A DNA stretch of 64,000 nucleotides from Escherichia coli (GTDB lineage Bacteria > Pseudomonadota > Gammaproteobacteria > Enterobacterales > Enterobacteriaceae): the NCBI RefSeq assembly GCF_030013595.1, contig NZ_CP122768.1; one strand, written 5' to 3'. Every line of letters begins with the position of its first letter. The first letter of the stretch is position 1. Position numbers: made by a program. Positions 26,001-29,000 of the stretch are shown here, in pieces.

Positions 26001-29000
26001 TTTTGCATCTGCAGTCGACATTTCATTGCTGGTTGAAATATCACCTATTTTTTCATACTGCGATTCAACTTTTTCAAATTCCGCTTTGGTCATCAATTCA
26101 GCGGCATAGACATTGGTAACGGCTAACGCTAACGCACCGACTAACATTTTAGAGATTATTTTCATATTACGGCTCCAGAGTTGTTATCACACTATCACCC
26201 ACCCACATTATTGGGTTGATTAATAATTAGTTCAGTCAGGGCATAAACGCCAGTAACCGGAAATAAGACACTTTGTGATCTCTCTCGCACCCGATTATTT
26301 TTGGTAGAAATATGATGAAGTTACTTCACTTATTTATGGATGAAATCACTATGGATCCTTTGCACGCCGTTTACCTGACCGTAGGACTGTTCGTGATTAC
26401 TTTTTTTAATCCGGGAGCCAATCTCTTTGTGGTAGTACAAACCAGCCTGGCTTCCGGTCGACGCGCAGGGGTGCTGACCGGACTGGGCGTGGCGCTGGGC
26501 GATGCATTTTATTCCGGGTTGGGTTTGTTTGGTCTTGCAACGCTAATTACGCAGTGTGAGGAGATTTTTTCGCTTATCAGAATCGTCGGCGGCGCTTATC
26601 TCTTATGGTTTGCGTGGTGCAGCATGCGCCGCCAGTCAACACCGCAAATGAGCACACTACAACAACCGATTAACGCCCCCTGGTATGTCTTTTTTCGCCG
26701 CGGATTAATTACCGATCTCTCTAACCCGCAAACCGTTTTATTTTTTATCAGTATTTTCTCAGTAACATTAAATGCCGAAACACCAACATGGGCACGTTTA
26801 ATGGCCTGGGCGGGGATTGTGCTCGCATCAATTATCTGGCGAGTCTTTCTTAGTCAGGCGTTTTCTTTGCCCGCAATGCGTCGTGCTTATGGGCGTATGC
26901 AACGCGTTGCCAGTCGGGTTATTGGTGCAATTATTGGTGTATTCGCGCTACGCCTGATTTACGAAGGGGTGACGCAGCGGTGAGCAGATAATTTACTCTC
27001 TACGTAATCAACCTGATTTGCCGAATCCCGACCATCGGCGATGATAGCCCCCGTAATGCGTGGTCCTTATTTCCGATAAGTTTACTTGAGTCTTTAGCTT
27101 CCCATTTCAGCCCACTCTCCCCTGTGTGGGCTTTTTTCATTGCTCTGACCCGTCCTGAATAGCCAAACAATGGCAATGTTTCACTTTGCAGGGATGATAA
27201 TAAGGGGATCTGATTCAGAAGAGTTATGAAAAGTTGGACCGCCATCGAGGCCTCGAACCCCGTACCATACAACAATCCTGGTTGTCGTCTGCTCTTCCTG
27301 ATGAGCTAATGGCGGTTTTTGATATGAGCCTTACAGCATATTTTCTGTCAGGCTTGAGTGCGATGCGTAAGATACAGAAAAGACCCCACACAAACATGAT
27401 GGAATTATGATTTTTTTCATATGAATGTCAACCCACACATTCACAAAACATCTGCATGAGATCATTTTTTATACACCGTATAACTGCGAAACCACTGCTG
27501 ATGCTTTTTTAAGCGAAGCGTCGCCGATCACAACAAAATATCGGCGAAAAAGGCGGTGGAATGCCATTTGGCATACGGATATACAGATGAAATGATTACC
27601 TGCTTTGCGATTCACTCTCTGCTGGAATAACAACTCGCAGGTGGAACCCTTTCTGAACTAAAGAGTGTAGCGGATTTTAACGTGCTTATTTACAGGATAA
27701 TATCTGTCACCTAATTCCTGCACTCTATTAGATATCCATTGATTTAATCGCGCATCATCTCTGTATGTTTTTACGTCCAGAACAGAGAGCAATAACATCA
27801 CCAGTGATTCAGGAAAAACAGGGTAGATATTTTTTAAGTGTAATAATAATCCATGCGCAAGCGCCTGCTTAATGGGCGCGTCGGTCTCCGGGATAGACGA
27901 CATTTCGCGAAGCCATTTTTCCACATGCATACACTCTTTCCCTTTAGGGAAAAGTCTCAGCAAAGGCATATGGTGTTCAAGAAGAATACATTTGCAATCT
28001 GTTCGCACTGAATCGATAAACTGCACTAATTTCTTAAGCCCGGTAAAGCGTCCAGCCTGCACGTTTGCTTTAATATCAAGAAACGCATCGTCCTGGTCAT
28101 ATACCCAAACTGTCCCTTTTTGATTTTCAAGTATGCGAAAAACAAACTTAACCGGGTGATCAGGGTAATCCATCCAGTCATAAAATCCAGGGAAATCATT
28201 AAACTGCACATTTATGGTGAGTGCGTTATCGTCTGACCACTCACAGTCTCGTACGGCAGCCATGAGATGAATGAGTTTGTCGTCATCGACTAAATCATCA
28301 CGACAATCATAAGGATAATCATAATATTGTTTAATCAAAACCTTGAATATATCGACACAGGAGACCAGGGAGCTTTTGATATCCTCTGGTAACTGATTGT
28401 TTTTTACTGTATTAAGTATGCTTTGTTGCGTATATGGCATCAAATTATTGTGCGGAGCTTTTAATGATATCATCGCGATCTCTCTTAAATAAAAATAAAC
28501 GTCGCAGATAATAAAGCCCTGATTAAACCAGGCACTATCAGAAATCGCTCATAACTAACGTGTGAAGTATTGTGTACTGGAGGGAGTTAATTTAACAATT
28601 TGAATTTACGTTATAGGTTTTACTGCTACTTTGATATTATTTCGCTCTCCTTAACTAAAAAGTTAAGTGGAGAGCGAAGTTAATATGTTAAACCACAGGG
28701 TATTTATTAATTTTTTCAGTCTGTTAGTGTGCGATTATCGATAACAAAACGATATTTCACATCTCCTCGCAGCATTCGCTCATAGGCTTCATTAATTTGA
28801 TCGGCCCGAATCATCTCTATATCAGCCACGATGCCATGTTCGGCGCAAAAATCGAGCATCTCCTGAGTTTCTGGAATGCCGCCAATCATAGAACCGGCTA
28901 TCGCACGGCGTTTCATGATCAGGTTGAAAACTTCCGGCGATTTATGCGGTGTCGCAGGCGCACCAACCAGCGTCATGGTGCCATCACGCTTCAGCAAGGT

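Follow-up and report, generated by a model that had tools for sequence, protein, structure and literature searches.

Dubious small open reading frames (ORFs) have been called downstream of, or across, RNA genes, as exemplified by tpr after tyrT in Escherichia coli. Small RNAs of the CpxQ, SroC and DapZ type are derived from the 3′ UTRs of enterobacteria, and Ju et al. in 2019 are said to have described bidirectional terminators at convergent gene pairs. Shiga-toxin and lambdoid phages carry the tRNA cluster ileZ-argN-argO, in which argN is tRNA-Arg(UCG), and the phage copies at the argN position are frequently unannotated or called pseudo. Features that invite comparison with these systems occur at a single chromosomal locus of E. 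coli, examined here within a window of 64 kb (the whole stretch of DNA analysed), in which the gene content around the locus is prpR, yahO, yahN (+), yahM (−), yahL, and yahK. The features of the locus, in window positions, are as follows.

26312-26983, plus strand: yahN coding sequence (LysE-family transporter), from the ORF list and the RefSeq annotation in K-12 and other strains; the hairpin comes after it
26984-27031, plus strand: proximal yahN 3′ UTR, variable in sequence; the yahM ORF has its 3′ end here
27000-27245, minus strand: yahM ORF as annotated, 81 codons (81 aa from the ATG)
27032-27108, plus strand: conserved, apparently non-coding island abutting the hairpin; candidate 3′-UTR element or small RNA body
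27064, minus strand: published Rho termination region inside the yahM ORF (Adams et al. 2021; MG1655 345585, K-12 plus strand; coordinate converted here)
27109-27137, plus strand: intrinsic-terminator-like hairpin and T6 (stem 27109-27115 / 27126-27132, T6 27132-27137)
27138-27234, no strand assigned: spacer without conservation between the two conserved islands, equal to yahM codons 4-36
27235-27315, minus strand: 81-nt tRNA-like element with a CCA end, a relative of phage argN
27259, minus strand: published RNA 3′ end in the T-stem of the tRNA-like element (Adams et al.; MG1655 345390, K-12 plus strand; coordinate converted here)
27316-27397, minus strand: transcript leader beginning at 27397 (transcription start), predicted to form two hairpins, at 27359-27396 and 27327-27354
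27404-27431, minus strand: sigma-70 promoter ‘yahMp’ (TTGACA, 16 nt, CATAAT)

Like the ORFs of the tpr/tyrT type, yahM appears to owe its start signals to a structured RNA gene and shows no conservation as a protein; unlike them, it also crosses the terminator of its neighbor, and RefSeq keeps a ‘protein YahM’ with the broken alleles as pseudogenes. The yahN terminator resembles those of convergent pairs and excludons in that a G+C-rich stem and U-tract lie shortly past the stop codon, within the transcription unit of the partner, such that the two RNAs overlap. It differs from bidirectional terminators in being one-directional, with no upstream A-tract, and the pair differs from a usual excludon in that the partner ‘gene’, yahM, is apparently not protein-coding. 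The conserved stretch directly before the yahN intrinsic terminator (27032-27108) recalls the small RNAs of the CpxQ, SroC and DapZ type, but the 27032-27137 candidate is absent from Rfam and has no Term-seq 3′ end (Adams et al.). The acceptor stem, D-arm, T-arm, and CCA of the tRNA-like element are near-identical to those of the argN tRNA; in contrast to phage argN, the element is chromosomal and solitary, lies beside yahN under its own sigma-70 promoter with flanks that show no phage similarity, and has a 7-bp stem capped by a 6-nt loop in place of the anticodon arm; the Rfam tRNA model rejects the element.

A terminator-like hairpin was found to begin 126 nt past the yahN stop codon, on the same strand and entirely within the minus-strand yahM ORF, and the preliminary description of the locus was confirmed on this point by coordinates, fold, and a strict scan. 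The stem is formed by AGCCCAC (27109-27115) paired with GTGGGCT (27126-27132), the loop, at 10 nt, is among the longer ones usually seen, and the first T of TTTTTT (27132-27137) closes the stem. The stem had been called a 7-bp GC stem; its length is correct, but only five pairs are G-C, the other two being A-T (A-U in the RNA). The RNA fold has an energy of -14.8 kcal/mol (z = -4.1), and none of 200 shuffled sequences folded as well. When both strands of the 64-kb window were scanned for a perfect 7-bp Watson-Crick stem with at least 4 G-C pairs, a loop of 3-10 nt, and a T-tract, this hairpin was the sole match, compared to a mean of 0.06 in simulated windows; a terminator scan missed it because that scan permits loops of no more than 8 nt. 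The stem is identical in E. coli, the divergent Escherichia clade SCPM, and E. albertii, the last having two loop changes. Alleles of B2 strains contain either a G·U pair that is valid only on the plus-strand RNA (EC958) or a bulge, with T5 in both, and the ST131 substitution (C to U) produces G·U on the plus-strand RNA and an A-C mismatch on the minus strand. The hairpin is weakened (-11.0 or -6.2 kcal/mol, T5) in approximately 16% of genomes (B2 strains, including Nissle-type alleles), indicating that it, too, is not strictly maintained.

The stem and U-tract, the position after the yahN stop codon, and the conserved structure are by sequence those of a Rho-independent terminator, and the hairpin at 27109-27137 is most likely the stop signal for yahN transcription. 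A bidirectional terminator was ruled out, since the minus strand has no U-tract. Of the RNA 3′ ends listed from Term-seq by Adams et al. 2021 (supplementary file 1, three growth conditions), none falls at the hairpin (MG1655 ~345512, K-12 minus strand), which may simply reflect poor expression of yahN. The only Rfam match of the hairpin, to ‘Betaproteobacteria toxic sRNA’, reached 20 bits (gathering score 50; E = 0.64), covered the generic terminator part only, and was rejected. In Citrobacter, Salmonella, and Edwardsiella, the sequence after yahN is unrelated, and the yahM region is absent there.

It had been proposed that the yahM ORF might be a non-coding annotation artefact, and this reading, rather than that of a conserved protein-coding gene, is now well supported by broken frames, the substitution pattern, the lack of outside homologues, and the Rho-dependent termination published within it. 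The frame is truncated to 11 aa in O157:H7 and in SCPM (a stop at codon 12 in both), and by frameshifts to 45-49 aa in B2 strains, while E. albertii, which is unalignable, has 31 unrelated aa. At least 21% of complete E. coli genomes, among them O157:H7, ST131, and Nissle, carry nonsense or frameshift alleles, which are of at least three distinct kinds (535, 271, and 300 of ~5140 records; at least 1106 in total), and some copies are labeled ‘frameshifted’ by PGAP (the NCBI annotation pipeline). Comparing the ORF with the hairpin across genomes, a check suggested at the outset, favored the artefact reading, with the stem kept out to E. albertii and the yahM frame broken in O157:H7, B2, SCPM, and E. 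albertii.

Purifying selection on the yahM codons, which the preliminary description had named, together with detection of the peptide, as evidence against an artefact, was not found. Across nine sequences, the yahM substitutions fall 8:7:5 on the three codon positions and comprise 4 synonymous changes, 15 non-synonymous changes, and 1 stop, alongside 1-nt indels and truncations; no excess at third positions or of synonymous changes was seen in these nine sequences. For the last 474 nt of yahN in the same nine strains, used as a control and counted on the alignment (which has a 3-nt indel), the codon positions were 7:4:19 and the synonymous to non-synonymous ratio was 17:13. The two genes differ both in synonymous versus non-synonymous changes (Fisher p = 0.018) and in third-position share (5/20 for yahM versus 19/30 for yahN, p = 0.010), each in a small sample of nine sequences.

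No YahM homologues were found outside Escherichia and Shigella in 61 clusters, every named one of which is from these two genera. ‘Distant’ homologues with 49-64% identity were considered as members of an older family and rejected, as the alignment showed frame-shifted readings of the same DNA. For at least one of these sequences (P0052, locus L004), the source assembly has split genes throughout. Two other ORFs at the locus were also rejected. A 46-codon ORF from an internal ATG at the A-tract has ACG for ATG in SCPM and E. albertii and is frameshifted, and a 57-60-codon ORF from the transcription-start ATG, which PGAP calls a ‘hypothetical protein’ in some strains, has a stop at codon 4 in SCPM and E. 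albertii. We infer that a YahM protein is not made.

The conservation profile of the locus follows boundaries other than those of the ORF. Identity to E. albertii is ~0.83 in the yahN coding sequence, 0.90-0.95 at 27032-27111, 0.42-0.53 at 27152-27231, and 0.97-1.00 in the tRNA-like element. The proximal 3′ UTR (26984-27031) is variable, with an identity of 0.75-0.78 to E. albertii and to the SCPM clade, and 5 polymorphic sites in 32 nt among nine E. coli sequences. Downstream, 27032-27108 is 0.90-0.97 identical to E. albertii and SCPM, above the level of the yahN coding sequence (~0.83), yet contains 1-nt indels; such conservation, together with the tolerance of 1-nt indels, suggests that the constraint on the island at 27032-27137 is non-coding. 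An 81-nt segment of this island (27057-27137) matches the window at every position in 4306 of 5173 E. coli records, and an equally long segment of the spacer (27146-27226) does so in just 255 of 5106. The spacer as a whole (27138-27234) has an identity of 0.42-0.53 to E. albertii, with indels, and 10 polymorphic sites in nine strains. Judged from these alignments, what is conserved appears to be two non-coding islands, one at 27032-27137 and the other made up of the promoter, leader, and tRNA-like element, which the yahM ORF would merely span.

The second island contains an element at 27235-27315 (minus strand) that ARAGORN called ‘tRNA-Ser(gga)’. Its minimum-free-energy fold is a cloverleaf (-29 kcal/mol) with a 7-bp acceptor stem, a D-arm, a T-arm with a UUCGA-type loop, a 3′ CCA, and an anticodon-like arm consisting of a 7-bp stem and a 6-nt loop (CCAGGA). 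A canonical anticodon arm (5-bp stem, 7-nt loop, U33, purine 37) is lacking: the ARAGORN register gives CAGGAUU as the loop (A33, U37) and places 4 extra nt between the D and anticodon arms. Because of the replaced anticodon arm, the element is unlikely to decode. The Rfam tRNA model RF00005 gave no match to it at E <= 1 (3 kb) or E <= 10 (221 nt), and other sub-threshold Rfam matches at the locus were judged to be noise. PGAP annotates no tRNA-like element here, and a literature search on such an element beside yahL and on argN/ileZ/argO returned nothing. The argN or ‘tRNA-OTHER’ genes of Stx and lambdoid phages are 75-85% identical to the element; the copies most similar to it are found in phage phiP27 (the middle element, unannotated), in phage mEp460, and on a plasmid, as a ‘tRNA-OTHER’ between tRNA-Ile and tRNA-Arg.

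E. coli, SCPM, E. albertii, and Escherichia sp. E1V33 share the element at 100% identity, and 4821 of 5170 records are identical to the window. The sole common polymorphism, U68 to C in O157, converts a G·U pair of the T-stem into G-C. In rare strains, the element is split by IS1 or deleted, indicating that it is dispensable. A role as a phage or island attachment site was considered and rejected, as the lone split genome carries an IS1 insertion with no integrated element, and the flanks have no phage similarity. We infer that this tRNA-like RNA has a function.

The minus strand is transcribed from a promoter, yahMp, that matches the sigma-70 consensus at 11 of 12 positions and is conserved in four Escherichia lineages; in Reg-seq, the yahM promoter was active and repressed by IHF. 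The leader (27316-27397) folds with z = -2.7 and is 0.78-0.93 identical to E. albertii. The forward primer used by Adams et al. for ‘yahM 5′ UTR + ORF’ begins with ATGTTTGTGTGGGG, which corresponds to window position 27397. The same study mapped an RNA 3′ end at MG1655 345390, 14 nt upstream of the yahM ATG, and its supplementary file 2 (Adams et al. 2021) lists a Rho region within the yahM ORF (score 6.23, significance 3.1e-33). A yahM 5′ UTR + ORF reporter was also constructed by Adams et al., and the ‘yhaM’ listed among the fusions that were more than 2-fold higher in rhoR66S is probably this reporter. The 165 convergent excludons that ExcludonFinder lists for MG1655 include yahM-yahN (at least 50% of RNA-seq samples), and the anatomy of the overlap fits an excludon, with the plus-strand terminator at 27137 and the minus-strand Rho region near 27064. 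The ‘dual use’ of the region suggested in the preliminary description holds to the extent that both strands are transcribed, but in no other sense. In addition, yahM has been found in a small-RNA-enriched pool.

These observations are probably best explained by two convergent transcription units that meet at this locus, with the yahM ORF an accidental open frame bridging both; anatomy, conservation pattern, ORF decay, and the published promoter, Rho, and 3′-end data are the directly observed parts of this explanation. The yahN mRNA would traverse a 126-nt 3′ UTR and end at the hairpin and U-tract (27109-27137), which would act as a one-directional Rho-independent terminator. On the opposite strand, the strong sigma-70 promoter (27431-27404) would start an RNA at 27397, composed of the structured leader followed by the 81-nt argN-derived tRNA-like RNA, and selection would preserve this RNA or its gene. 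RNA reading through past the tRNA-like element, untranslated or poorly translated, would run antisense to the yahN 3′ UTR and through the hairpin, which on this strand is not followed by a U-tract, and Rho would stop it at ~27064, giving rise to the reported yahM-yahN overlap. The yahM ‘start codon’ and ‘Shine-Dalgarno’ sequence would then be parts of the acceptor arm and T-loop of the tRNA-like element.

A more tentative proposal, which we regard as plausible though not as the probable outcome, concerns the minus-strand unit itself. The ‘yahM’ locus may be a non-coding RNA gene that specifies a domesticated, anticodon-less tRNA-like RNA, derived from phage argN, maintained without change between species, and expressed from its own IHF-repressed promoter. 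Conceivable roles of such an RNA include that of a decoy for, or a substrate of, factors that bind or cleave tRNA, and that of a module, for processing or regulation, that controls antisense transcription into yahN. It is rather unlikely that the element is instead an inert phage tRNA relic, identical across species by chance or recent transfer. The non-canonical anticodon arm and its rejection by the Rfam tRNA model are in line with a relic, as are the frequently unannotated or pseudo status of phage argN-position copies, the losses and splits in rare strains, and the Term-seq data of Adams et al., in which no CCA-ending 3′ end of the tRNA-like RNA is reported and the mapped end is inside the T-stem. 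Against a relic, not one of the 81 nt is substituted in three other lineages, although the flanks there, in an unchanged genomic context, are 10-50% different; the chance of this is 3e-7 to 2e-4 per lineage. Phage conversion cannot explain this identity, since the phage copies are only 75-85% identical, and the promoter and leader are co-conserved.

On the plus strand, the island and hairpin (27032-27137) might form a regulatory sRNA, cut from the yahN 3′ UTR or internally promoted, with the hairpin as its terminator and Hfq-binding module. We consider this unlikely: the island exceeds the yahN coding sequence in conservation, tolerates 1-nt indels, ends in an intrinsic terminator, and has a weak promoter-like site at 26907-26934 (+), but Adams et al. 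reported no Term-seq 3′ end there in three growth conditions, Rfam offers no family beyond the terminator-like match (E = 0.64), the fold is unremarkable outside the terminator (z = -1.05), the U-tract is just 6 nt, and Escherichia sp. E1V33 and MOD1-EC7003 either lack the island and hairpin or have diverged in them. There is less still to recommend YahM as a genuine young small protein of phylogroups A, B1, D, and E, made from the annotated ATG across a sequence used twice, with the terminator on the opposite strand. The 81-codon frame is indeed open in the window, K-12, EC1, E01, and most non-B2 E. coli genomes, the promoter is real and regulated, GAGG lies 5 nt upstream of the ATG, and Shiga-toxin-producing E. 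coli induce the yahM transcript when they adhere to epithelial cells. However, even the intact alleles carry 11 non-synonymous changes versus 1 synonymous, with many radical replacements (R to W, G to V, L to Q, A to P, E to G, I to K), and the disrupted alleles are common and of several kinds. The ATG (27245-27243), in the 3′ acceptor arm, and the GAGG, in the T-loop, are locked in the -29 kcal/mol cloverleaf, Rho termination occurs within the ORF, and no Pfam or NCBIfam family or domain was matched. It is very improbable that the hairpin serves the minus-strand RNA, for example as a 3′-exonuclease barrier or a pause site for read-through from the yahM promoter, its place after yahN being incidental. 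The minus strand is transcribed across the hairpin and folds equally well in most alleles, but a T-tract follows the stem on the plus strand only, the ST131 change preserves pairing as G·U only on that strand, Adams et al. reported no minus-strand 3′ end adjoining the hairpin, and the Rho region lies ~45 nt past it.

Under the preferred reading of two convergent units bridged by an accidental frame, the terminator within yahM, as originally posed, is ordinary and a matter of annotation clean-up, with the tRNA-like element as an interesting by-product. The K-12 entry b0327 (yahM), which y-ome lists, regulon studies, and tables of differential expression still carry, is probably no protein gene, and if yahM is non-coding, the ‘pseudogene’ calls in ST131, Nissle, and O157:H7 are meaningless. 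The tRNA-like element, unannotated, invariant across Escherichia species, of Shiga-toxin-phage tRNA origin, and served by a validated promoter, is a testable candidate for a domesticated phage RNA. If this proposal is true, the data already available on the promoter of yahM, on its regulation by IHF, and on Rho-dependent termination would have to be re-read in its light.

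The prpR-yahO-yahN-yahM-yahL-yahK region is present in the window in the orientation reverse to that of K-12, and the features discussed here are arranged as follows.

26312-26983, plus strand: yahN, the gene preceding the hairpin
27000-27245, minus strand: yahM, 81 codons counted from the ATG
27109-27137, plus strand: terminator-like hairpin
27235-27315, minus strand: tRNA-like element, 81 nt, ending in CCA
27658-28473, minus strand: yahL

The preliminary description, which regarded yahM as either an annotation artefact or a region of dual use, had located the hairpin correctly: a 10-nt loop separates AGCCCAC (27109-27115) from its pairing partner GTGGGCT (27126-27132), TTTTTT follows at 27132-27137, and the distance from the yahN stop codon to the start of the hairpin is indeed 126 nt. 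The folding energy of the RNA (-14.8 kcal/mol, z = -4.1) was matched by none of 200 shuffled sequences. The built-in terminator scan accepts loops of at most 8 nt and, hence, missed the hairpin; in a stricter scan of both strands of the 64 kb, it was the sole match, with simulated sequences averaging 0.06 matches. As read from the sequence, the minus strand carries an A-tract before the hairpin and no U-tract after it, indicating that the hairpin is a one-directional signal.

Conservation across the locus was found to be strongly uneven.

Identity to E. albertii along the locus
yahN coding sequence: about 0.83
26992-27031: 0.75
27032-27111: 0.90-0.95
27152-27231: 0.42-0.53
27232-27311: 0.97-1.00
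27312-27351: 0.93
yahM promoter: 0.88
upstream of the promoter: about 0.5, dropping

The yahM ORF, therefore, spans two conserved islands and an unalignable spacer between them. Among E. coli records, the 81 nt of the tRNA-like element are the same as in the window in 4821 of 5170, and 81 nt of island 1 (27032-27137, ending in the hairpin) with the hairpin in 4306 of 5173, compared with 255 of 5106 for 81 nt of the spacer (27138-27234), a figure partly due to rare alleles of this strain. Island 1 contains 1-nt indels in the divergent clade SCPM-O-B-8794 (SCPM) and in E. albertii, so that its constraint is non-coding on either strand. The approximately 77 nt just 5′ of the hairpin (27032-27108) are 0.90-0.97 identical to E. 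albertii and SCPM, exceeding the yahN coding sequence, and are possibly a candidate 3′-UTR-derived sRNA or antisense target. That island 1 is such an sRNA is rather unlikely, and would be compatible with the main model described below.

SCPM, E. albertii, and every non-B2 E. coli examined share an identical hairpin stem; the loop of E. albertii has two substitutions at its 5′ end. In ST131, a C to T change at 27113 produces a G.U pair in the plus-strand RNA and an A-C mismatch in the minus-strand RNA, and the T-tract is shorter by one (-11.0 kcal/mol); in Nissle-type strains, a 1-nt deletion creates a bulge (-6.2 kcal/mol) and five Ts remain. Comparing conservation of the ORF with that of the hairpin, a check proposed at the outset, favored the hairpin, with its stem kept out to E. 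albertii. The hairpin thus behaves, in these comparisons, as a plus-strand RNA structure would, and is eroding in B2. It was not found in Escherichia sp. E1V33, although the tRNA-like element and promoter are kept there, and beyond Escherichia the sequence 3′ of yahN is unrelated. Escherichia sp. MOD1-EC7003 has lost the hairpin, island 1, and the tRNA-like element through a deletion. IS1 insertions occur at the locus in strains CT29 and DETEC-S792; one, with an adjacent deletion, ends directly against the hairpin's 5′ side (window ~27108), and the other cuts the tRNA-like element after nt 62; these two features are dispensable. B2-type strains, along with some others, lack yahL, for which no family exists in Pfam or NCBIfam; their match to the window stops at ~27644. 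yahN is sometimes a pseudogene with an internal stop (e.g., strains EC1 and SCU-204), and, for a transporter, its ratio of non-synonymous to synonymous changes (13:17) is high; decay of the whole yahL-yahN neighborhood may be under way in part of E. coli.

The main rival to the model described below, that YahM is a young, lineage-specific protein, is improbable. Its 61 relatives among 5.8 billion proteins fall, where clusters name a source, entirely within Escherichia or Shigella; no Pfam domain was found in the relatives' clusters, and no family in Pfam or NCBIfam matches YahM. Relatives with 49-64% identity were considered as distant homologues and rejected, being the same DNA translated through frameshifts; one low-identity relative derives from an assembly in which many genes are split. 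The locus was aligned among K-12, O157:H7, ST131 (EC958), two other B2-type strains, three further E. coli, SCPM, and E. albertii. The frame from the annotated ATG is intact in five of these sequences. It ends after 11 codons in O157:H7 (CAG to TAG at 27212), after 45-49 codons in B2-type strains (1-nt deletions in the hairpin arm and T-tract), after 11 codons in SCPM, and after 31 unrelated codons in E. albertii. The NCBI annotation pipeline (PGAP) labels the B2 copies ‘frameshifted’, and gives O157:H7 a shorter ‘hypothetical protein’ in place of yahM. Exact-allele searches returned 535 ST131-type, 271 Nissle-type, and 300 O157-type records, broken alleles totaling at least 21% of ~5140 records. 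In a small sample of nine E. coli sequences, yahM substitutions were distributed 8:7:5 over codon positions 1:2:3 (4 synonymous, 15 non-synonymous, 1 nonsense), compared to 7:4:19 (17 synonymous, 13 non-synonymous) in the last 474 nt of yahN from the same strains, and the contrasts were significant (Fisher p = 0.018 and p = 0.010). Intact alleles alone showed 11 non-synonymous changes, several of them radical, versus one synonymous. For these nine sequences, the pattern is that of unconstrained sequence.

ARAGORN calls a tRNA at 27235-27315 on the minus strand, an element absent from the annotation, with a predicted cloverleaf fold of -29 kcal/mol, comprising a 7-bp acceptor stem (CCGCCAU/AUGGCGG), a D-arm, a T-arm with the loop UUCGAGG, and an encoded CCA. 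The anticodon arm is non-canonical (7-bp stem, 6-nt loop), and the Rfam tRNA model gave no match, even at E ≤ 10. The yahM ATG (27245-27243) is nt 71-73 of the element, on the 3′ acceptor strand, and the putative ribosome-binding site GAGG is its T-loop; the gene-like features of yahM are therefore borrowed from an RNA structure, which would also sequester them. Sequence identity of the element is 100% among E. coli, SCPM, E. albertii, and E1V33; with flanks diverging by 10-17%, all 81 nt would stay unchanged by chance with a probability of 2e-4 to 3e-7 per lineage. The single common variant (O157) converts the T-stem wobble G56.U68 to G-C. Its relatives are the argN tRNA-Arg(UCG) genes of Shiga-toxin/lambdoid phages, part of an ileZ-argN-argO cluster located between Q and stx; the closest (75-85% identity) are degenerate copies in phiP27 (401-482) and mEp460 (401-488; positions within the phage segments analysed) and a plasmid ‘tRNA-OTHER’. 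The rest of the locus shows no resemblance to phage DNA. Several lambdoid/Stx phages carry, at the argN position, an 81-nt pseudo-tRNA that is unannotated and whose ‘anticodon’ arm has a long stem. Just two alleles of this form were seen among 14 viral contigs, suggesting that phages, too, maintain the anticodon-less form. The element of the window tested positive for cloverleaf structure and argN homology and negative as a decoding tRNA; it should be classed as a tRNA-like or pseudo-tRNA element, not a tRNA. No published description was found in the literature searched, which covers little of the older phage work.

A conserved, near-consensus promoter (TTGACA-16 nt-CATAAT, 27431-27404, minus strand) precedes the element. 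A Reg-seq preprint confirmed the yahM promoter and identified IHF as its repressor (10.1101/2025.05.13.653802). The ‘yahM 5′ UTR + ORF’ clone of Adams et al. (2021) has a primer beginning at window 27397 (PMC7815308), marking the transcription start 7 nt downstream of the -10 hexamer. Between the start and the element, the leader contains predicted hairpins at 27327-27354 and 27359-27396; leader and element together fold with z = -2.7. An ORF of 57-60 codons (27224-27397, minus strand) begins at the transcription-start ATG, and would hence be leaderless; it spans the leader and element, and is a ‘hypothetical protein’ per PGAP in some strains. Since SCPM and E. albertii have a stop at its codon 4, this ORF, too, is probably an artefact.

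Rho acts on RNA that is free of ribosomes. Adams et al. (2021) tabulated a Rho region within the yahM ORF at MG1655 345585 (score 6.23, p = 3e-33; PMC7815308), or window 27064, which speaks for poor or no translation of the ORF. Their Term-seq mapped a 3′ end to MG1655 345390 under all three growth conditions, within a significant Rho termination region and with an intrinsic-terminator score of 1.28 (PMC7815308). By our conversion, this corresponds to window 27259 (minus strand), 14 nt 5′ of the yahM ATG, in the T-stem (nt 57), and lies ~10 nt past the stable anticodon-like stem. It may be an exonuclease stall site, and would imply that many transcripts never fold into the full cloverleaf. The text of the same study includes ‘yhaM’ in its list of 14 fusions raised more than 2-fold in rhoR66S; since its plasmid and primer tables (supplementary file 4) contain yahM (pMM3) and no yhaM, the name is a probable typo for yahM, hiding an experimental result on this locus (PMC7815308). 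‘yahM’ also occurs in the small-RNA pool of a small-RNA-seq preprint.

Taken together, we consider the following model probable. The yahN mRNA would stop at the hairpin by intrinsic termination, as its anatomy and conservation suggest, and the opposing promoter would yield the leader and tRNA-like RNA, whose promoter, start, and 3′ end are documented. Polymerases that continue would pass the hairpin, which is no terminator in that direction, antisense to the yahN 3′ UTR, until halted by Rho, as demonstrated by bicyclomycin data; the 81-codon frame would be a by-product. In the Term-seq tables, 3′ ends are missing from the hairpin U-tract as well as from the tRNA-like element's CCA, and both absences count against this model (PMC7815308). 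Among known terminators and convergent overlaps the locus is ordinary, and yahM-yahN is already catalogued by ExcludonFinder as a convergent excludon (PMC12288877). The searchable literature yielded no statement that yahM is probably non-coding, and still treats it as an uncharacterised protein. The significance of the terminator and ORF finding is modest; that of the tRNA-like RNA would be greater, if it is functional.
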